A stretch of DNA of 64,000 nucleotides. It comes from an uncultured Nitrososphaeraceae archaeon. GTDB lineage: Archaea > Thermoproteota > Nitrososphaeria > Nitrososphaerales > Nitrososphaeraceae. Below, piece by piece: positions 14,467 to 29,896 of this stretch. The DNA lies in assembly GCA_963825865.1 (NCBI GenBank), contig CAWGVG010000046.1:13739-77738 (forward strand), in the 5' to 3' direction. Both the position numbers and the translations under genes were made by a program. Under the pieces are notes generated by a model that was not told where the DNA came from, did not search any database, and was given only the letters and a program-made list of their open reading frames with translations. Position 1 is the stretch's first letter. Each line of letters starts with the position of its first letter.

Positions 14467-15582
14467 CGGGGTTGTTGCCTAATTCGTTTTAATTGACTGT
14501 AAATATGATTTCACGGTTTTCGATTTAGCTTAGAAAGGGTATGCACCCTCTTATTGACTTGCAAGCACAAGAGGAAAGATGGTTACTGGTTGTGTTACCA
14601 TCTAGCACATACCCTAGAACGAGATATGCTTATCGAAAATATAGTTTCTCTGGTCAAAGAAAATCCTCCTCCTACTTTAAAGAAGAACAGTAATAGAGGA
14701 AGGAAACCAATTCATTCTTGGGAAAAACTTGTCTGTATTTGTATATTGATGGTTGTTTTCGGTTCAACGTACAGAGATATACAGAATATAGTACCCTCTC
14801 TTAATTTGCCATGGAATAACGAGCCATATCCAGATCATACGTGGATATCACGTACATTCAAGAAGATACCGCTGATATATCTTGAACGTGTACTAATATG
14901 GTCAGCTTATCTATGTTTGAAAGAATCAGGCTGGAAGAAGGGTATTCTCGCATCAGATAGCACCGGTGTAGAGACAAACAGGTACGGATACGAAGTACGA
15001 TTTATCAAAAATAGTAGTAAGAAATTCGAAAAGATAAGGGTAAAACAGTATCTGAAATGGCATATCACAGGGATACTTGATCATCTCATAATACTTAATA
15101 CACGACTTACCAGTAAGAAAACACACGATTCTCCAGTACTCCGAACAATGCTAAACAGATTGAAGAAATATAGATTAGACTTTGCAGGTTCAACATTCAA
15201 TGGTAACAGAGGTTATGATGGCAACAAGAACTTCCAGTCAGTGTTTAACATGAACATGCTTCCAAATATCAAGCAGAGAAAAAACTCCAAGAACAAGAAT
15301 AGCAGTAGTAAGAAGAACAAATACAGAAAGAAGGCTGCAAAGATATTCAATGCATCAATATATCGTTATAGAGGATTGATAGAAGGAATATTTGGAGCTG
15401 AAGAAACTAAACATCATCATCATCAGCTATACTGCACATTCAGATTAAAGAACAATCAGAAAAGATTTGGATTAATTAAATCAATAGGCTGGAACCTAGA
15501 AGTCCTTAACAGACTACAATGTGCAAACAAACTGGGAATAAAGGTGACACCATATGCGATATCAAATTAGGCAACAACCCCG
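14467..15582 (+). mobile_element. IS4/IS5-superfamily insertion sequence with perfect 18-bp TIRs
   Basis: CGGGGTTGTTGCCTAATT at 14467 and its reverse complement at 15565-15582; no TSD visible. Confidence 0.9.
14554..15570 (+). CDS. DDE transposase (DDE_Tnp_1-like)
   Basis: ASDSTG, YLKWH, THDSP, GNRGYD, YRYRGLIEGIFG; stop codon lies in the right TIR. Confidence 0.85.
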   Translation: MTCKHKRKDGYWLCYHLAHTLERDMLIENIVSLVKENPPPTLKKNSNRGRKPIHSWEKLVCICILMVVFGSTYRDIQNIVPSLNLPWNNEPYPDHTWISRTFKKIPLIYLERVLIWSAYLCLKESGWKKGILASDSTGVETNRYGYEVRFIKNSSKKFEKIRVKQYLKWHITGILDHLIILNTRLTSKKTHDSPVLRTMLNRLKKYRLDFAGSTFNGNRGYDGNKNFQSVFNMNMLPNIKQRKNSKNKNSSSKKNKYRKKAAKIFNASIYRYRGLIEGIFGAEETKHHHHQLYCTFRLKNNQKRFGLIKSIGWNLEVLNRLQCANKLGIKVTPYAISN

Positions 15583-18228: not shown

Positions 18229-19256
18229 TTACTCTACTTCCTCATCCTTAGCTGCTTTCTTACTACCGCTGCCCTTCTTCTTCAATTCTTCATCCATATC
18301 ATCTGATCCCCTTTCGTTTACAGTAAATCTCGCATCCGAATATGGATGGTAAGGAGAGTCTATCATCTTTGCAACCCTATTTTCTCCAGATTTTCTAAGA
18401 TATACCCTGTAAGTTGAAGCATGTCCTAACACATTTCCACCAGCTGCTTTTGTGGGATCTCCAAAGAAGGTATCAGGAGATGATTGCACTTGGTTTGTTA
18501 TAACTATGGCAATGTTGTATATTTCAGCAAGTCTTATGATCTTGTGTAACATGCTATTGAGCCTCTGCTGTCTATCAGCCAATGTACCTCTTCCCGCAAA
18601 CTCTGCCCTATGAAGAGAAATTATACTATCAATTATCACCAATTTCGCTTTAAAGTCATCGACATATTTACCAAGGTTCTTTATTATTAGTTCCAAATGA
18701 GAGCTGTTGTAGACTTTGCACACTGCTACATTCTTTAACACTTGTAACTGGATCAAATCCTCTTGCTCGTGCTATCTCTTGTACTCTTTCAGGTCTGAAC
18801 GTTCCTTCTGTATCTATGTATATTGTACTGCTATCCAGTCCACCTGATTCTATAGGCTGTCTAGCTATGGCACACAGAGTATGGCATATTTGTGACTTGC
18901 CAGAACCAAATTCTCCATAGAATTCAGTTACGGCCTGGGTCTCTATACCTCCGAGTAAGAGTTCATCAAGGGTACTAGAACCGGTAGAACATCTTAACAA
19001 GGATTTCCTTTTCTCTAGAGCTGCATCTGCAGTAACGAATTCTTTCTCCAACACTTTGGAGTCTCTTAATAACTTTTGGGCTGGCAATTATGAATGTACT
19101 AGCACTCTCTTTTGAAGCGTTAATGTCCACAGATAATTCGTCGGCAGTTGCTACTGCGAGATCCATCACAGAGACAATACCTGCTTCTTTCAGCTTTTTA
19201 GCTGTCGTAGGACCAATGCCTTCTATGTCTTGTATCTCTAGTTCAATTATATCCAA
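18229..19256 (-). CDS. radA: DNA repair and recombination protein RadA (two frameshifts)
   Basis: [10 protein letters not shown] Hh[10 protein letters not shown] Walker [34 protein letters not shown]. Confidence 0.95.
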
Positions 19257-19929
19257 TGATGAAGTTTCAGATACTGTTGTTGCTGGCAGCAGGCAGCACT
19301 TGTATCACCCTTTATAGCAGTGATATTATTATTACTATTAGCAGTAGTAGATTCATTTTCTACAGACGGTTTTCTATCCACCATATGACGTTCGAACTAC
19401 ATATAATGAACGCTTGTATTAATATTGAAAGGTACCAAATAGGGGGGGAGGGCGGCGTGATAAATGAATGAATCTACAGGCATATACCACTCCTTATTCT
19501 TCTCACATTCTACCAATCATACCATTCTACCGCTCCTTTAGATAGTATCAAGCTGCTGCTTAACAATGAACAGAATATAAAAAAAACAAACTGTTAATAA
19601 GAAAAATTAGTTAGTCAGACTATCATAACGGTGAGAATATGCAGGTGTAATCAACGGCCATCAGTCACAGCCGTACCATCTAAAATATAAAAATTGGCTA
19701 GTGTATATACCTTAACGGTTATTATTTTAATATGATCAATATAGTAGTTATTTTAGTACAATCCATAAATCTTAACATAGAAAAAGAGAACCAAACTTAA
19801 AATAGCCTATCAATAGAACCTCAAGATCCGAGGTACTTTTTCAAGAATTCTAAATATAATAAGCGCTATAGAAAACAGGCTGGAAGAGATGATAACAGAA
19901 AAACAAAACAAAACAAACAACCAAGCTAA

Positions 19930-20149
19930 CTAGCTTGATGGCATTTCACAAAGATCAGCATAGAAATTGCTCCCATATACGAGGCCGAACTTTTTGAACA
20001 TAATTACACATTCCTCTGAATCGAACACGTAATGCGAATCCATCAATTATCTCTTTGATTACCGTAACTTTTTGTCCTTCTTCTTCTCCTTCGCGTCCTA
20101 CCAAGGTCTTTCCGCATAATGCACATTTAGCTTGTATTTTTTCGGCCAT
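19930..20149 (-). CDS. Small Cys metal-binding (TRASH/YHS-like) protein, one frameshift
   Basis: Removing one T near 20037 gives MAEKIQAKCALCGK...GSHYVFDSEECVIMFKKFGLVYGSNFYADLCEMPSS*. Confidence 0.7.
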
Positions 20150-20475
20150 TGTGATGTTATCTTTTTTTATTTTTTATTTTATTCCACCTTACTGCGCTAT
20201 CATAGGTAAGACTTGCTTCTGCCTCCTGCTTACTTCTTTTCATCTCTTTTTTCCTCATCAACAATATTAACGCCATTATTATGATCTTTCACTGATAGTA
20301 CTTTCCTTGGAAGTATATATTTAGATCCTTTTATTTCGCCTGTGAATTTTATTATATATATATCATACTTTTTATTGTTTTTGCTACTTGTTTCTATACT
20401 TAGGAACTTTCAACAGCCACATCCACACATAATTTTAAATTCCTTTATATATCAATAAGTAGCATTTTTAGCATA

Positions 20476-21451
20476 TTGACTAGCTGTATTGCTTTTCATT
20501 CTTATAAGGGCGGTACTGGTAAGACAACAATAGCTGCCAATCTTGCTGCCTTATTAGCAAAAAAGGGGTATCGTGTATTTTTATTAGATCTTGATGTATA
20601 TGCGCCCAGTCTTCAAGCTTATTTTGGAACTAAACCAAAAAGATGGATTAATGATTTCCTAAATGGTCACTGCAGAAGTTGGAGACGTAGTAATGGACAC
20701 CACACACATGGTAGAGGAAATTAATAGTAATAAGAAAATAGCTGGAAAATTATGGGTTGGCTTCTGCAGTTCAAAGAAGGAAGAAATTTACAAACTCGAG
20801 GGTAGTACTGGTGGTGGAAAGCAAGATAGTTCAAAGATACAGTTGCTTAGAAGGTTTATACTTTTGAGAGAACAACTGATTTCGCTGCATGACGCTGAAT
20901 ATATCATAATTGACACTAGCCCAGGTATAAGATATTGGTCAATAAATGCACTGGCCGTTGCAGATACACTCTTTCTAACCCTCAAAATGGGTGATCTTGA
21001 CATTGATGGTACAAGAAAGATGGCTGACGAAATCTACGGATCCTTTACAAAGTTCGGCGCCAAGTCCTATCTTGTAATGAACAGGGTGGCTGGCTATTGT
21101 GTACCCCACTATGATATCATGTCTGCTTCTCAGATATCATCACCATCACCATCCCCATCCCCATCATCACCAGCTACCTCTAATACTATTACGGATACTG
21201 ATGAATCACGATCACATCACAATCAAAAATCTGCCATTACAGTGCAGCAACAAAAAGATGAAACAAATACTATTAGCAATACGCTGTCTAGCGAAGTGGG
21301 AATGGATGTAATTTCTTCTATTGCATGCTATTGCGATATTCAATTTACTAGTAAAGAATTCTTAACTGCTATTAAATATCCGGACCATCCTTTTGCAAAG
21401 CAAATTGAACGGCTAATAGAAAAAATGAAAACAATGCCAACTAAAGCTTAA
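20476..21451 (+). CDS. MinD/ParA-family ATPase (frameshift near 20665)
   Basis: Deviant Walker [35 protein letters not shown]. Confidence 0.88.
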
Positions 21452-21505
21452 TCCTTAAAAAAACATAAAAAAAGTATATAGATGACGAATTAAAGACTTC
21501 AATTA

Positions 21506-23144
21506 ATGCAGATTCCGGGTATATCTGATCTCTTAGATAAAGGAACTATTCCTGATAGCGTGCTACTCCTTACCGGTCCTGCTGGAGCAGGCAAAAGTAT
21601 GTACTGCAGACAGTTCTTTGCAGACGGCTTATTTGACAGAGATTATTGTATTTATGTCAGCTCCAATTTAACTGATAAGCAGTTTAGAAGTCAATTCTCT
21701 AATATTGAAAAGTTAAAGCTAATTGAAAATTCCAAATTTATAAACCCATATCTATACCACACAGATCACCTTAATAGTCAAGAATATTCTTCTCCTTCGT
21801 CTTCGTCGTCGTCGTCTTCTTCTTCCTATTCATTTACCATTTCTGATAAAAAGAATGAAGATAATGATGATAAAACAGGTGGTGGCGGATTGGACAATGA
21901 CAACATCAAAAAATTATCATTGACTTTAGCAGAAATTCGTGATGATCTAATCAAGGCAAAAAAATTTGTCCGTGACGATAATAATAATAATAATGTCAGT
22001 ATTAATAATAATATTCATCATCCTGCATATCCTTTTTCTTCTTCTTCTTCTCCAGATGGCAATAATAGGTCTGTTCGCCTGATTGTTGATTCTCTGACAC
22101 ACCTTTTGGTGCTATTTGGACAAAGCGCTGTGTTGAAATTCGTCAACGATCTCTCTTTTCTTTTGAAAGAGTTTGGAGCAATGGCAATTTTTACATTGAC
22201 TACTCCATTATCAAATGAGTATTTGACCAATGCTTTAAGTTCTATTTTCGATGGCATAATTGAAATGAAGCTTGAAGAACATGGTGGATCTATGACTAGG
22301 AGTATCAGACTGCTTTCGATCAAGGGTCTGCACCATAACCCTTCATGGATCAATTTCAAAATCTCTGATGATGGCAGCCTGGCATTTGCTGACCAATCGT
22401 CTTCGTTGACCTGTATGTTATGTGGAAAATCAATTTTGGGCACACCTATATTTGATTCTGAATTTACATTTGACAGTCAAAGCTGTTTAGAAACATACAA
22501 AAAACTTGCAGTAGTTTATGGTTCGAATATATCAGAAATTGGACTACCCTCAGAGGTCGTAAATGTGAACTTTTTCTTTATAGACATAGTAAGCCTTTCA
22601 GATCCTTCTTTATCTATTAAAAAACAAAGAGAAAAGATCGAGGTCCTGAACAAAATGATTGGTTCTTGTGATGCCTACTTCAGAACACCCAGGGACAAGA
22701 AGATTATTCTCCCCACAGGAGATGGCATGGCTATAGGTTTTTTGTTGAATATAGAGCTACCTTTTCAACTTAGTATTCAACTCCACCGAAAACTTAGGGC
22801 ATACAATCGTGGCAAATCCCCCGAAGAATTTATTGGAGGTACGAATCGGTTTAAGTTCTGGCCCTGTGTTTGTAGTCAATGACATAAACGATAGGCAGAA
22901 TGTATGGGGACCAGGGATTATACTTGCCCGCCGCGTTATGGACATAGGTGATAACTACCACATATTATTAGCAGAAAGAATAGCTGAGGAATTGATTGCA
23001 CTCAAAGATGAATACAGAGCATCCATAAAACCCGTCGTCGATTATCAGATTAAACATGGCCAAACAATCAAATTGTATTCGGCTTTCTCGAAGGAATTTG
23101 GAAACCCAAAACCACCAGCAAAGATTATTGAACGTTATTATTAA
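21506..23144 (+). CDS. KaiC/RAD55-like ATPase fused to a TRASH-like Cys domain and a class III nucleotidyl cyclase domain (frameshift near 22830)
   Basis: GPAGAGKS, LIVDSL, FDGIIEM; CMLCGK...FDSQSC; FFIDIVS, PTGDG, VRIGLSSGPV, NVWGPGIILARRV. Confidence 0.85.
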
Positions 23145-23554
23145 AAGAGAAAGTACACTAAAGCAAGCGAAATAAAAAATTTATTAGAGAAAACACACTT
23201 CTTTGAACTTCCTTCAAAGCTGTGACAGTCTTCTTCTAAAACAACAAGAGGCGCAGCTGATTATTTTGTATATAAAATCACAATTCAAAATAATAATAAT
23301 AATAATAATAATCAAAGCCAACACTCTGTGGAATGCAATGATGTCAATATTCAACCCACTCTCAGACCGCTTATTGATATTTTGACCAAATATTTGCGAA
23401 AATGACGTAACAAGTATTGGCTACACTGTATATAGCTATCTTTAATTGTCAGGTCAGATAAATTTTAGCAATATCAAATATTTTCTTGCCAGAAAGAGAG
23501 ACATGTTGTATAATAAACGATTTTTTAGCATCACCATTTCTTTGACCATATTTC

Positions 23555-24815
23555 TGACATACTCCCTACGTTAAAGCCTTGGGGTTCTGGTGTCTGTATC
23601 GTTTTCTACAGTTGCACCTTTAAGCGTATCAGTGCTCGCTTTCCAATGTATCTCTGTCTACATTGGATTGATCTCTGGTGGATATGCGCAATACGATATC
23701 GGTTTGCCAATATTGAACGACGCATTAACATCTCCATGATCAACGTGTCCATTTGGACACTCAAATCTTTTATCGTCTCTTTTGCCTATATGTCCACACC
23801 TAGAACATGTTTTTGACGTATAGCGTGGATCAATATATTCAACGATTATCCCTTGCAGCTTGTCCTTGTATTCTATAAACTTCTGAAGTTGATAGAATGA
23901 CCAACTGTTCAAAGAATAACGAAAACTTTTGACATGCCTCTTGCCCTTTCGAATGTCCTGCAGTTTTTCTAGCCTTATACTAGATTTTGCACTACTTGCT
24001 GTTTCGACTATCTTTTTACTAATATGGTGGTTAAGGTTCCTAACGATCCTGCTTTCTCTATTTTTTATCTGTTTAACCTTTCTATACTTACCTCGTTTCT
24101 GCAATCCTTTCCTAATGTGTTTATATTTTGTATGAATATGCTCAGCAATCTTTCCTAATTTCCAAACCTTGCCTGTATCTGGATTTGATATAACTGCTAT
24201 ATGACCTGTAGTATTCAAGTCCACTCCAAGATATCCGTTATTGTTAGCATAATAACATTGTTGGTGGTATTCTTCTTTTTCTTTGACTGAAACAGAAACA
24301 TATGCATACTCTTCACCAATTTCTATCTGGTTTACATTTTCAAAAGAATGTGGAATTCGATATTCAAACGAACACTTTAGACACGGTATGCTTATCATCC
24401 TTAAGACTCTAAATCTAGTTTAATGCCTTGATTTGGAATTGTTAATTTGATATTCTTCACCTGTCTGATTACTTTGTTTCTACCATACTTTCGAAGTATC
24501 TGGTTGGATATAGCTGACTTTATGATGTCCATACCAAGGACATCATATCCATACTCTTGTCTGCTTACCTAGAATCAGTTCTTTCAGCCTTGAAGCAATA
24601 TCCTCTGTTAATACTTTCCTTCTATACTTTGGACAGAATATAACATGATACTGGGAGCTATATACTAAATGGCTATCTGTCTTATACTGCTTTGGATAGT
24701 TCTGGATATACGTATTAATTATATGATAATCATGTATATAATGATTTAGATATATGTTGTAGTAATGCCGCAATTCATCAAGTCTCTAAGAGAGCTGGCT
24801 TTCTTGCGTCTTCCA
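23555..24815 (-). mobile_element. IS200/IS605-family element with an internal deletion (tnpA' fused to 'tnpB)
   Basis: tnpA start YSSQYHVIFCPKYRRKVL; tnpB RuvC and Zn motifs; end hairpins near 24768-24810 and 23555-23590. Confidence 0.85.
23658..24520 (-). pseudogene. tnpB: TnpB, N-terminally deleted and frameshifted
   Basis: LGVDLN, IRLEKL, TSKTCSRCG, CPNGH, DVNASFNI. Confidence 0.85.
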
Positions 24816-27351: not shown

Positions 27352-27846
27352 GGTTAATTTGTTAATATTTTGATCATGATTATCATAACTAATGGTTAAC
27401 GCTATTTGATAAATCTGTCAACTACCACCAGCTAAAGCATGGTGGCTTGTAACTGCCGAAAAAAGAGGCGCTACAATAGGCTGATTGACTGCAGCCCTAG
27501 CATTAGGAGCAATATTTCTTGCTGCCACATAATCTGCCATTTCCTTGTATCCACATTGAAGACATTCAAAGTCATTTCTTGATTTTCTGTTTCGTCTGTC
27601 TATGTATTCGCAAGATGGACATTGCCTTGAAGTGTTCTTTGAGTTTACAATCCTCAAAGGAACGCCTTCCTTCTTTGCCTTATATGTTACAAAGTTTCTT
27701 AATTCTCCAAAACTCCATTTTGAATGTCTGTCTCTCTGGCTACGTCTAAAAACAGTTGTCCTCAAACGAATGTTAGTTAAAAGCTTATGTAAACACACGC
27801 GTAGTTATTTTCTGTAAACTATGACTAGTTATGTTCTTGTGCGTGT

Positions 27847-28853
27847 TGCTTTGTTGCATGATTAATTATCTTGTAAGTGATACTTATTTGACCACTCACC
27901 ATTTAGCTTGCTAGTATTAATTATTCTGGTATGGTTGACTGGCCTTGCTATAATGAATCACTAGTTAGGCGTGGTCAAGTACTCTTGGATTTTGATGTAC
28001 TTGATCGATGGGATCATGAATTATGTCAAATGAACCTTGGTAAGGTTGGTGAGCCCTACTGCTACCCAAATTCATTTATTCAGCTTCTAGGTTACATGAG
28101 AGCATATTTCCATCTACCATATAGACAAACACAGGGTGTAGTCATAGCTCATGCAAGTAAAGAAGTATCAAACACACCACATTATAGTACCATTAATAGA
28201 CGTATAAACAGGCTAGAGATTAAAATCGATGAAAAATTAGGAAATGATATTGTCATTGCTTTAGACAGCACCGGCATTAAGGTAGCTAATCGAGGGGAAT
28301 GGATGCACCACAAATGGCATGTCAGAAAAGGATATCTAAAGATACACATAGCAGTTGATATCGAGAAGAAAAGAATTGTATCTCTGGAGGTAACAAGTGA
28401 AGAGGTACATGATGGTAAGATGCTAAAGAAGTTAGTAGACAATGCTTCTGAAAATAATAATCATGTGAAGGGTATATTAGCAGATGGTATGTACGACAGC
28501 AATAAGAATTTTAGATACCTATCAAAGAACCACATTAAGCCTGGTATAAAGACAAGAAGTAATTCCAAGGTCAAGTCAACTAACTGTCATGCTAGGAATA
28601 TGTCTGTAGTAAGACAACAACAGACAAACCTCAAAAAATGGAAGCGTAGCGTGAGCTATGGGTACAGGTGGATAGCAGAAACAGCATTCTCTTCCATTAA
28701 AAGAACATTTGGTGAACATGTAACAGCTAGAAAGTTTCCTCACATGGTAAAAGAGATCCTCCTAAAGGCAGCTCTGTATAACATGTTCAATCGAAATGAC
28801 CTGAGCTAACGGTTTGCATAACCTAAAATCCTAATGAATTATGCAACAGAGCA
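27847..28853 (+). mobile_element. IS5-family insertion sequence, copy 2
   Basis: Same TIRs as copy 1; 9-bp TSD TGTGCGTGT at 27838-27846 and 28854-28862. Confidence 0.92.
27931..28809 (+). CDS. IS5-family DDE transposase (intact)
   Basis: 292 aa, near-identical to 9823..10668. Confidence 0.92.
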   Translation: MVDWPCYNESLVRRGQVLLDFDVLDRWDHELCQMNLGKVGEPYCYPNSFIQLLGYMRAYFHLPYRQTQGVVIAHASKEVSNTPHYSTINRRINRLEIKIDEKLGNDIVIALDSTGIKVANRGEWMHHKWHVRKGYLKIHIAVDIEKKRIVSLEVTSEEVHDGKMLKKLVDNASENNNHVKGILADGMYDSNKNFRYLSKNHIKPGIKTRSNSKVKSTNCHARNMSVVRQQQTNLKKWKRSVSYGYRWIAETAFSSIKRTFGEHVTARKFPHMVKEILLKAALYNMFNRNDLS

Positions 28854-29896
28854 TGTGCGTGTTATTATAATCCTCGGTCCAATCCGATACTGCCTGTCCT
28901 ATATCAGACTCATTTCCAAATGTACTGTTATCGATGGCTTTCCTTTGCATCCACATCCATCTTACCTCTATCATATTGAGTTCTGGCGATTTTGTAGGAA
29001 GGAACACAGGCACTATTCTTGGATGATGGTGTGCTAACGCTTCTCTTGTCTTCTTGGATTTGTGTATTATGGACGCGTTGTCAAGTACCATGAATATTCT
29101 TTTGATGCTTGAATCATAGACTGAATCCACTTTATTCATGAAATCGATGAACTGATTACTTTTCTTCTGTTGTTGGTAGCAGTGCGTTAACAACATTCTA
29201 TCGTTTGTATAATCGTAAATGCCAAACACGTTCAACAAACCTTTTACTTTCTGATCATGTTCTATTTTGGTCTGAGTAGAACACCATGAAGAACCACCAT
29301 ATGTTTTAGCTGCTATGGGTCCTTTTTCATCCTGAAATAACAGTACCTGAATATGCATTGGAGTTATTCTTCAGCTCTTCAATATGCTTTTTTTAAATCA
29401 TAATCTGGGCCTTTGCTTTTACTACCTAGAACAATCTTGGAATGTCTCCACTCAATACCGTGTTTTAAAAGTACATTTCTTATTTCAGCATGACTAATGC
29501 TACCAACTATTTTCTTTTCCATAACGTACCCTGCTAGAACACGTAATGACCATGTAGAGAATTTCAATCCTAGTTCCCTCGGGTTAGCCGATGCTATACT
29601 TACAATCTCGTTTTCTATATCATCTGTTATATTTAGAGCATCATGATCATGTTTCCTTGATGATGATACAATGCCATCAATAATACCATGACCGTTGAAT
29701 CTGTGTATCCATTTACGTATGTTATATTATCATGATGATTGGTTTTCCTTCTTATCTCAGGTACCGTATATCCTTCATTCCGTAGAAGGATAATCTTGGC
29801 TCTATAACCTGCACCCTTACTACTATCGTCGTCAATCATGGCGTATAGTCTGTTCTTTTCTTCTTCAGTGATATCTCTGAGATAGGTCGGTCTCAT
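28854..29896 (-). pseudogene. IS630 transposase (frameshifted; last codons displaced to 27786-27846)
   Basis: ORFs 29633..29896, 29379..29567 and 28831..29358 give the HTH region, WSLRVLA and the DDE triad; AAAAAAAG site at 29387-29394. Confidence 0.85.

Follow-up and report, generated by a model that had tools for sequence, protein, structure and literature searches.

Predicted docking of a dedicated ParA/MinD-superfamily ATPase on a cysteine module shared by cyclase-type and kinase-type signalling proteins of the Nitrososphaeraceae

What might a ParA/MinD-type ATPase do beside a gene whose product joins a KaiC-like domain, a small Cys-rich domain and a cyclase domain? The question is raised by a locus in a 64,000-nucleotide stretch of DNA (hereafter the window) from an uncultured Nitrososphaeraceae archaeon (GenBank assembly GCA_963825865.1, contig CAWGVG010000046.1), where such an ATPase gene is followed by the gene for this fusion protein and preceded, on the opposite strand, by a small gene encoding the Cys-rich domain on its own. 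We call this domain the T module, its stand-alone form the free T protein, and the C-terminal part of the fusion the cyclase-homology domain (CHD). An original prediction, made from the letters of the window, had put three genes at these places and on these strands, and both the listing of open reading frames (ORFs) and the sequence itself confirmed them. The explanation that we favour, with a probability of roughly 0.55 for the whole of it, is that a dedicated ParA/MinD-like ATPase gates or positions signalling enzymes tagged with the T module, the ATPase and the fusion forming a lineage-specific signalling unit of the Nitrososphaeraceae.

The distribution of these genes was determined in 24 genomes of the same family and in 16 other families of the order, using the first ORF of the fusion as the query for the latter protein. 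A fusion match was found in all 24 family genomes, at full length in 23 of them and confined to the cyclase domain in one (G001). Ten of the 16 other families were also matched by the fusion query, always in single domains and never over the whole protein. The ATPase subfamily was present in 23 of the 24 family genomes (E<=1e-20) and in none of the 16 other families at the same threshold, while the T module was found in one of those 16. By coordinates, with three doubtful loci checked by tblastn, the ATPase gene lies directly upstream of the fusion and on the same strand in 17 of the 24 family genomes; the ATPase-fusion order, part of the three-gene neighbourhood whose conservation the original prediction had proposed to test, is conserved. 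Three genomes (G003, G004 and G020) carry two fusion copies apiece, every copy with its own ATPase neighbour. When all ATPase genes of the subfamily were tallied over the genomes, 26 of 36 had a T-bearing fusion or a T-bearing kinase (described below) within about 2.5 kb; several of the remaining 10 are on short contigs. A free T gene occurs within about 2.5 kb of the ATPase, the fusion or the kinase in 7 of 25 genomes (G000, G001, G003, G012, G014, G016 and G017), making 8 such genes since G003 has two. Two genomes of one genus, G002 and G019, encode a longer, 390-amino-acid form of the ATPase away from the fusion (contigs G002:C144 and G019:C87), and in both a free T gene of 57 amino acids lies about 6.8 kb away.

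The T module follows the pattern C-x-L-C-G-K ... F-x-F-[D/H]-x-x-x-[C/H]-x-x-x-[FY]-[KR]-[KR]-L-x-x-[VI]-Y-G, in which the CxxC pair is invariant among the fusion homologues. Some fusions (L017, L018, L020, L021 and L022) lack the third Cys and have His-x-x-His instead of Asp-x-x-x-Cys, and this alternation between C/C/D/C and C/C/H/H suggests a real metal site; the module is probably a small metal-stabilised fold. It had been described as a TRASH-like Cys domain, a description that holds for the CxxC knuckle and is less secure for the family assignment, as in relatives every Pfam match (VATC; Arc_trans_TRASH, 21.5 against a cut-off of 27; YHS, at most 20.6 against 30.3) stayed below threshold and the window's own small T ORF had no Pfam match. 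The free T protein and the internal CxxC...FDxxxC...VYGS domain of the fusion are paralogues, and the former aligns with intact orthologues of 55-77 amino acids at four related loci (L013, L020, L015 and L016); in the ESM Atlas it matched unnamed clusters only, at 0.90-0.91. A T-module profile run against the whole host genome matched only the fusion and the small divergent gene, which bears out the proposal that the latter encodes the fusion's Cys domain.

In relatives the same profile marks, besides free proteins of 55-80 amino acids, the N-terminus of proteins of 478-547 amino acids with HisKA and HATPase_c domains, that is, histidine kinases (T-kinases). Among the longer database proteins matching the profile (n = 53), 44 are kinases with PF00512 and PF02518, 1 is a KaiC-cyclase fusion and 8 are without a Pfam domain. 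In the sampled genomes, 5 of 11 T-kinases (in G001, G008, G012, G021 and G022) adjoin a paralogue of the ATPase, and these kinase-side paralogues retain LLRxFIxLRE, GYC, CYCDIQF and other motifs of the subfamily. One such locus (L024, G012:C16, 2778..8658, minus strand) comprises, in this order, a T-kinase, a response regulator, the ATPase, a ParB-like protein (ParB_N and HTH_ParB), two ORFs of unknown nature and a free T gene, and connects the ATPase subfamily, within a single genus, with a partner of the ParB type.

The ATPase and the fusion were then modelled together, as proteins of Candidatus Nitrososphaera gargensis, each with its own alignment (42 rows for the fusion, 41 for the ATPase) in one prediction job. 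The complex scored 0.61 (0.54, 0.64 and 0.61 in the individual runs), against 0.00 for the best of three controls. Of 80 solved complexes 58 attain a score of 0.61, as do 2 of 110 mismatched pairs; these counts are only a rough guide here, since custom alignments were supplied. The runs shared at least 93% of their contacts, and the partner had a predicted local distance difference test (pLDDT) value of at least 73. On the fusion side, the confident contacts lie without exception in the T module (residues 238-240, 260-271 and 277-280 in N. gargensis), on a surface made of the LCG knuckle of the CxxC and the helix C-x-E-T-x-R-K-L-x-x-x-Y; these contact positions are the ones most conserved across the fusion, kinase and free forms of the module. 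On the ATPase side, the contacts map to residues 115-127, 151-159 and 184-193, corresponding to the LLRxFIxLRE helix, to WSIN just past switch II and to YGSFTKFG, and the conserved ATPase cysteines 206, 258 and 260 are outside the predicted interface. We know of no solved complex between a ParA/MinD-like ATPase and a domain of the T-module kind that the predictor could have memorised. The modelling of the ATPase with the fusion that had been suggested at the outset yielded a predicted contact, in which the T module would be the docking site of the ATPase.

The ATPase itself carries a deviant Walker A motif with the signature Lys (KGGTGKTT, from 20506) and a DLD motif. Across 41 sequences the deviant Walker A region and DTSPG are invariant, as are motifs of the subfamily's own, WSIN, GYC and CYCDIQF, and the C-terminus reads HPFAxQ. 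The invariant cysteines lie in GYC(V/I)P (21092..21106) and (I/V)(P/A)C(Y/F)CDIQF (21326..21346), and those of GYC and CYCDIQF could form a metal or cluster site. Beside its Pfam assignment (Table 1), there are weak matches to the NUBPL/ParA, Fer4_NifH and ArsA models. The best NCBIfam model, AAA_KGGVGR, gave 71.2 bits and is below its cut-off of 90; minD_arch (56.0 bits, cut-off 201.75) and minD_bact (38.7 bits, cut-off 212.9) both fail, and no curated NCBIfam model for MinD, ParA or a metallochaperone is passed. The protein is a ParA/MinD-superfamily member of a dedicated subfamily and not MinD proper: the name 'MinD ATPase' first given to it was right as to the superfamily, with its deviant Walker A and switch motifs, and too narrow as to the family. 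Database names of the homologues range over 'cobyrinic acid a,c-diamide synthase', 'chromosome partitioning protein' and 'MinD-like ATPase'. Long low-complexity inserts rich in Ser, Asn and Pro occupy 21120..21300 near the C-terminus of the ATPase and 21770..22070 within the KaiC-like domain; modelled with a pLDDT of about 30, they are short or missing in the orthologues of N. gargensis.

The KaiC-like domain is matched by PF06745 (E 6.5e-19, in the first ORF of the fusion), and its profile found KaiC in the PDB (E 1.2e-19) along with PH0284 and FlaH, the same proteins that Foldseek returned for its model (FlaH, 4yds; KaiC; PH0284). Walker A reads GPAGAGKS (21575-21598) and the Walker B Asp is within RLIVDSLTH (22076-22102); all 42 sequences compared have G38-K39, with the Walker A Lys, and D129-S130, with the Walker B Asp. 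In three KaiC alignments, the F-E-E-S of KaiC aligns to s-n-l-t of the fusion family profile, and the window has SSNLT. From these alignments, the domain is without the catalytic Glu-Glu pair and has Asn-Leu in its place; it probably binds nucleotide and hydrolyses it poorly. The fold and the Walker motifs expected of a 'KaiC/RAD55-like P-loop domain' are accordingly there, and the catalytic Glu pair is missing. The domain also has the Ser/Asn-rich low-complexity insert mentioned above, and a weak MEDS match was seen by Pfam in the N. gargensis orthologue of the fusion.

The CHD shows the motifs FFFIDIV, PTGDGMAIGF, VRIGL, NVWGPGIILARRV and IKHGQ. With PF00211 (Guanylate_cyc), the window's C-terminal ORF scored 21.8 bits for a cut-off of 21.9, or 22.1 when summed with the neighbouring ORFs, and two intact orthologues scored above the cut-off (26.2 and 28.3 bits). 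An AlphaFold2 model of the T module and CHD, built from 73 sequences, had a pLDDT of 91.6, and its top Foldseek matches were all class III adenylate or guanylate cyclases (E down to 5e-11; template-modelling score on the target up to 0.83), which confirms the class III cyclase fold of the CHD. Both metal-binding Asp residues (in FFFIDIV and TGDG) are found in 24 of 24 fusion representatives and in 115 and 119, respectively, of 126 other members of the CHD subfamily, the rest being nearly all gaps. The Arg is likewise present in 24 of 24 fusions and the C-terminal Lys (KHG) is invariant in them, both being nearly so among the 126 others. Over all 150 representatives the base-specifying Lys position is mostly Leu and the base-specifying Asp position mostly Asn, and at the canonical Asn position the 126 others have Ile in 63 cases and Asn in 42. 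Metal and triphosphate binding thus look intact, and base recognition and ribose positioning look non-canonical. Of the earlier proposal of a class III cyclase domain acting as a cyclic-nucleotide switch, the fold stood; synthesis of a cyclic nucleotide is not assured, given the non-canonical base-specifying and Asn residues.

A search of 1.84 billion representatives with the CHD profile gave 3961 relatives at E<=1e-3, of which 372 reach E<=1e-30, and the best 24 of the subfamily matches are KaiC-like/T/CHD fusions. Further CHDs of this subfamily are joined to EgtD-like or other S-adenosylmethionine-dependent methyltransferases, plastocyanin-like domains, Clp_N-FHA-Ser/Thr kinase, CHAT-NACHT/NB-ARC-TPR, or about 200 amino acids of unknown sequence (database representatives P0038, P0061, P0076, P0088 and P0106 are examples). 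No solved, named or characterised member of the subfamily was found among the PDB and database matches, and for 10 representatives the sole name in their clusters was 'hypothetical protein' (archaeon MnTg01). The host genome has 16 PF00211 matches, the fusion included, and one protein with a cyclic-nucleotide-binding domain. Its only other CHD of the same subfamily is on contig C33 (96331..99792), at the N-terminus of a 423-amino-acid ORF with about 200 further residues of unknown nature, 1.6 kb from another PF00211 gene. A pyrimidine cyclase of the Pycsar type was considered and rejected, there being no such chain among 22 PDB sequence matches and the genes being core and syntenic, not of a defence island.

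The coordinates of the three genes and of the fusion's domains are compiled in Table 1.

Table 1. Features of the ATPase-fusion locus (positions in the window)
Feature	Position	Strand	Remarks
Free T-module gene	19930..20149	-	about 72 amino acids once the frameshift at about 20037 is bridged; from ORF frames
Divergent intergenic region, AT-rich, 326 bp	20150..20475	.	presumed promoter region, between the free T and ATPase genes
ParA/MinD-superfamily ATPase gene	20476..21451	+	Pfam CbiA/ParA/AAA_31; frameshift at about 20667
KaiC-like / T module / CHD fusion gene	21506..23144	+	starts 54 bp past the ATPase stop; frameshift at about 22837
KaiC-like (RecA-superfamily) P-loop domain of the fusion	21506..22396	+	PF06745
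T module of the fusion, TRASH/YHS-like Cys domain	22397..22558	+	CMLCGK at 22412-22429, then FTFDSQSCLETYKKLAVVYGSN
Divergent class III cyclase-homology domain (CHD) of the fusion	22559..23144	+	motifs from 22559; split between two ORFs

As the table indicates, each of the three genes is interrupted once in the window; in the small minus-strand gene, for instance, MAEKIQAKCALCGK is read in one frame and FDSEECVIMFKKFGLVYGSNFYADLCEMPSS, up to the stop codon, in a second, the frame switching at about 20037. Such breaks had been anticipated near 20037, 20665 and 22830. We aligned contigs of 4 public runs from 4 different studies on positions 19900-23200 at a likeness of at least 90%, and found one base fewer at 20037 in both runs covering it (X1 and X4), at 20667 or 20668 in all 4 runs (two contigs of X4 place the gap at these two neighbouring positions), and at 22837 again in all 4; the remaining listed indels within coding regions are multiples of three. 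In relatives, all 10 loci examined encode the fusion in one ORF (477-551 amino acids), so that the one polypeptide proposed for the repaired frame is what they encode and the cyclase is no separate ORF; the 7 of these loci in which the ATPase adjoins the fusion likewise encode it in one ORF (295-346 amino acids). The divergent arrangement of the free T and ATPase genes recurs in two relatives (G017 and G016). Nearby, a radA/Rad51-family recombinase gene (18229..19256, minus strand) is spread over three overlapping ORFs (175, 139 and 93 amino acids) by two further breaks, while its orthologue in L013 is one ORF of 386 amino acids, and the host assembly has a completeness of 81.76% at 4.98 Mb. 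The breaks at about 20037, 20667 and 22837 are most likely single extra bases, assembly errors rather than gene decay, because there are five breaks in about 5 kb, radA included, in an assembly of this completeness and size, and because the contigs of the 4 runs are without the extra bases and the ORFs are intact in relatives. The surroundings are rich in insertion sequences (14554..15570, 23658..24398, 27418..27798, 27931..28809 and 28831..29358), comprising DDE transposases (PF01609, PF13358) and two TnpB/Cas12f-like ORFs with the TNB domain, of which the one at 23658..24398 is located some 0.5 kb downstream from the fusion gene. In RNA runs, the shares of the stretch represented were only 0.05-0.09.

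How could these parts work together? Under the explanation that we favour, the ATPase would be co-transcribed with the three-domain fusion and would dock on its T module via helices close to switch II, probably as an ATP-dependent dimer, the form in which members of the ParA/MinD superfamily act. Class III cyclases are dimers with their active sites at the interface, and the T module lies about 15 residues ahead of the first cyclase strand; because of this short distance and of the location of the active sites, docking could set the pairing of the cyclase domains or their location. It would thereby control, in a nucleotide-dependent manner, the active pairing of two CHDs and/or the cellular position of the enzyme. 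Oligomerisation and nucleotide sensing would fall to the KaiC-like domain: it is probably a binding and oligomerisation domain or a sensor, because Walker A and B are kept and the Glu pair is lost. The free T protein would be either a competitor for the ATPase or a cofactor that modulates it, and the ATPase subfamily would act likewise on the T-kinases, regulating or positioning T-tagged signalling enzymes in general. A more ambitious version makes the T module a portable tag for an ATPase that organises or gates both the fusions and the kinases in soil ammonia-oxidising archaea, with free T proteins as competitive decoys and a CHD that makes a messenger other than cyclic AMP or cyclic GMP. 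If it held, archaeal signalling would have a layer not recognised before, in which positioning ATPases and KaiC-type hubs are joined to two-component systems and nucleotide messengers; taken as a whole, we consider this version speculative and rather unlikely.

Several observations weigh against the favoured explanation. The binding of the ATPase to the T module comes from a single structure-prediction job, and its score is a model confidence rather than a measurement. The module itself had a pLDDT of 41-48 in the full-length fusion model (67.6 overall), and in the model of T module and CHD it is only its first 40 residues that reach 75-89; its metal binding is read from the Cys/His pattern. 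The ATPase and the fusion are not adjacent in 7 of the 24 family genomes: there is no adjacency in G002, G010, G015, G018 and G019, the neighbour in G012 is convergent, and G001 is without a full fusion. Likewise, for 6 of the 11 T-kinases the contig carries no ATPase gene. For the CHD, the PF00211 score drops to 17.4 bits, below cut-off, in the closest relative, and the fusion's own score ranks last but one among the 16 of the host genome. In the alignment to Mycobacterium avium Ma1120, the base-specifying Lys position is Leu in 22 of 24 fusions and the base-specifying Asp position is Asn in 23 of 24, while the position of the transition-state Asn is Ile in 23 of 24 (or Gly, at the alternative position in this alignment), and the CHD may have little cyclase activity or none. 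The last point leads to the alternative that we take most seriously, while still thinking it unlikely, namely that the CHD is a pseudo-enzyme which makes no cyclic nucleotide, the KaiC-like domain and the CHD serving as ligand-binding modules of a scaffold or sensor whose output is the interaction with the ATPase. The near-uniform Leu/Asn/Ile replacements in the fusions would fit this, as would a KaiC-like domain that is also without its catalytic Glu and PF00211 scores close to or under the cut-off; it is opposed by the metal Asp pair, the Arg and the KHG Lys, kept throughout the fusions and nearly so in the 126 other members, and by the canonical Asn retained in 42 of those 126, a pattern that typically goes with preserved catalysis and a changed recognition of the base. 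The mycobacterial cyclase Rv0386 is reported to be active with Gln/Asn replacing Lys/Asp.

Other alternatives concern the ATPase, or the genes as such. SIMIBI NTPases such as CooC, HypB, UreG and Mrp/NBP35 deliver metals or clusters, and the ATPase could be a metallochaperone that loads or removes metal on the Cys-rich T module as its client, binding it for maturation or metal sensing. The invariant cysteines of GYC and CYCDIQF, the placing of the predicted interface on the Cys-bearing module, the C/C/D/C versus C/C/H/H alternation expected of a real metal site and the weak NUBPL/ParA, Fer4_NifH and ArsA matches all speak for such a role, which we nevertheless find improbable, as the interface residues exclude Cys 206, 258 and 260, no curated metallochaperone model is above its cut-off, and the neighbourhood has no conserved gene for a metalloenzyme target. 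Still less credence is given to mere co-regulation, in which a generic ParA-type partition or positioning ATPase would share an operon with the fusion and make no contact with it: the G012 paralogue, flanked by a response regulator gene and a ParB-like one, and the database family name 'chromosome partitioning protein', are what one would expect of it, yet ATPase-fusion pairs are co-duplicated in G003, G004 and G020, the association tracks the T module over two different output enzymes, the complex prediction passes with controls at 0.00, and there is no ParB-like gene among the ORFs scanned around the window locus. To the same low degree we credit the notion that the genes are decaying in this strain, the three frameshifts being real and the genes pseudogenes. 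The extra bases are, after all, in the window sequence itself, the region around is dense in transposase and TnpB-like genes, and the run contigs come from close relatives that are not certainly the same strain, which leaves a small chance of real pseudogenes; set against this are near-identical contigs from 4 independent studies without each extra base, the two additional breaks in neighbouring radA, frames otherwise clean and conserved (the L013 and L014 orthologues are 60-94% identical), and a completeness of 81.76% despite 4.98 Mb, as expected of an indel-rich assembly.

How much of this is new? The combination of KaiC and cyclase domains is not, as such, since it is already auto-annotated in databases: homologues of the fusion bear the Joint Genome Institute (JGI) label 'KaiC/GvpD/RAD55 family RecA-like ATPase/class 3 adenylate cyclase', while the N. 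gargensis orthologue, Ngar_c35660, is a 'hypothetical protein' at NCBI and has a UniRef name beginning 'Guanylate c...'. A literature search, outside which the 2017 KaiC survey and its supplements fell, found no published description of the fusion architecture. The original statement that no characterised system of this architecture was known therefore holds as far as a describing paper is concerned, and has to be qualified for the domain combination, which JGI had annotated automatically. In the part of one study available to us, class III adenylate cyclases appear among Nitrososphaeraceae-specific gene clusters (PMC13577086). What we add, and have seen in no source, is the link of an ATPase subfamily to a T module common to cyclase-type and kinase-type enzymes, together with the predicted docking. 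The locus thereby offers a testable hypothesis, that a lineage-specific ATPase recognises a small Cys domain in two signalling outputs. Ammonia-oxidising archaea drive soil nitrification, and to our knowledge their signal transduction is almost unstudied. If the hypothesis is true, (i) ParA/MinD-type ATPases would control soluble signalling enzymes through a domain tag, (ii) the orphan idea of a 'KaiC hub' would gain a defined partner, and (iii) a large class III cyclase subfamily, with thousands of representatives, would be flagged whose base pocket is unlike that of all characterised enzymes. As Candidatus Nitrososphaera gargensis has orthologues of both genes (Ngar_c35660 and its neighbour) and a complete genome, biochemistry is feasible.

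Positioning ATPases with adaptor-tagged cargo are known in several systems, among them ParC-ParP of chemotaxis arrays, PpfA-TlpT, McdA-McdB and Haloferax MinD4. The ATPase described here resembles them in its deviant Walker A with the signature Lys, in its DLD and DTSPG motifs and in a predicted partner site beside switch II, and its cargo, too, would be signalling proteins. It differs in that it fails the curated MinD and ParA cut-offs and has WSIN, GYC and CYCDIQF motifs of its own, in that the predicted tag is a Cys-rich TRASH/YHS-like domain and not an amphipathic peptide or a ParB-type N-terminus, and in that the cargo would be a soluble cyclase-type enzyme and soluble histidine kinases, known here from sequence and models.

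Archaeal KaiC-like ATPases were reportedly proposed as signalling hubs by Makarova, Galperin and Koonin in 2017. The fusion is akin to these hubs, and to the inactivated KaiC domains conceived as 'iKaiC' (Galperin et al. 2018, PMC5847659, as far as the article was available), in having a single RecA-like domain of the KaiC family fused to signalling modules. Unlike them, it keeps Walker A and B while the Glu pair is lost, it is joined to a CHD through the T module, and it has an ATPase partner; the portion of PMC5847659 at hand mentions cyclase, TRASH and MinD 0 times each.

Among class III cyclases, the closest solved enzyme by sequence is Ma1120 of M. avium (E 4.3e-06). The CHD shares with this class the fold (root-mean-square deviation of about 2.7-3.1 A), the two metal Asp residues, the GDG turn, the Arg and the C-terminal Lys, and departs from it in Leu for Lys, Asn for Asp and Ile (with Gly two residues earlier) for Asn, and in belonging to a large separate subfamily. 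Domains of the TRASH, YHS and zf-FCS type are marked by an FCSxxC motif. The T module is similar to them in its CxxC knuckle, followed by the helix start aromatic-x-F-[D/H]-S/T-x-x-C-x-x-x-F/Y, which is FCSxxC-like; it is set apart by Asp or His at the first FCS Cys, by the conserved extension KR-L-x-x-V-Y-G, by the failure of every such model to pass, and by a predicted role in protein docking rather than in copper handling.

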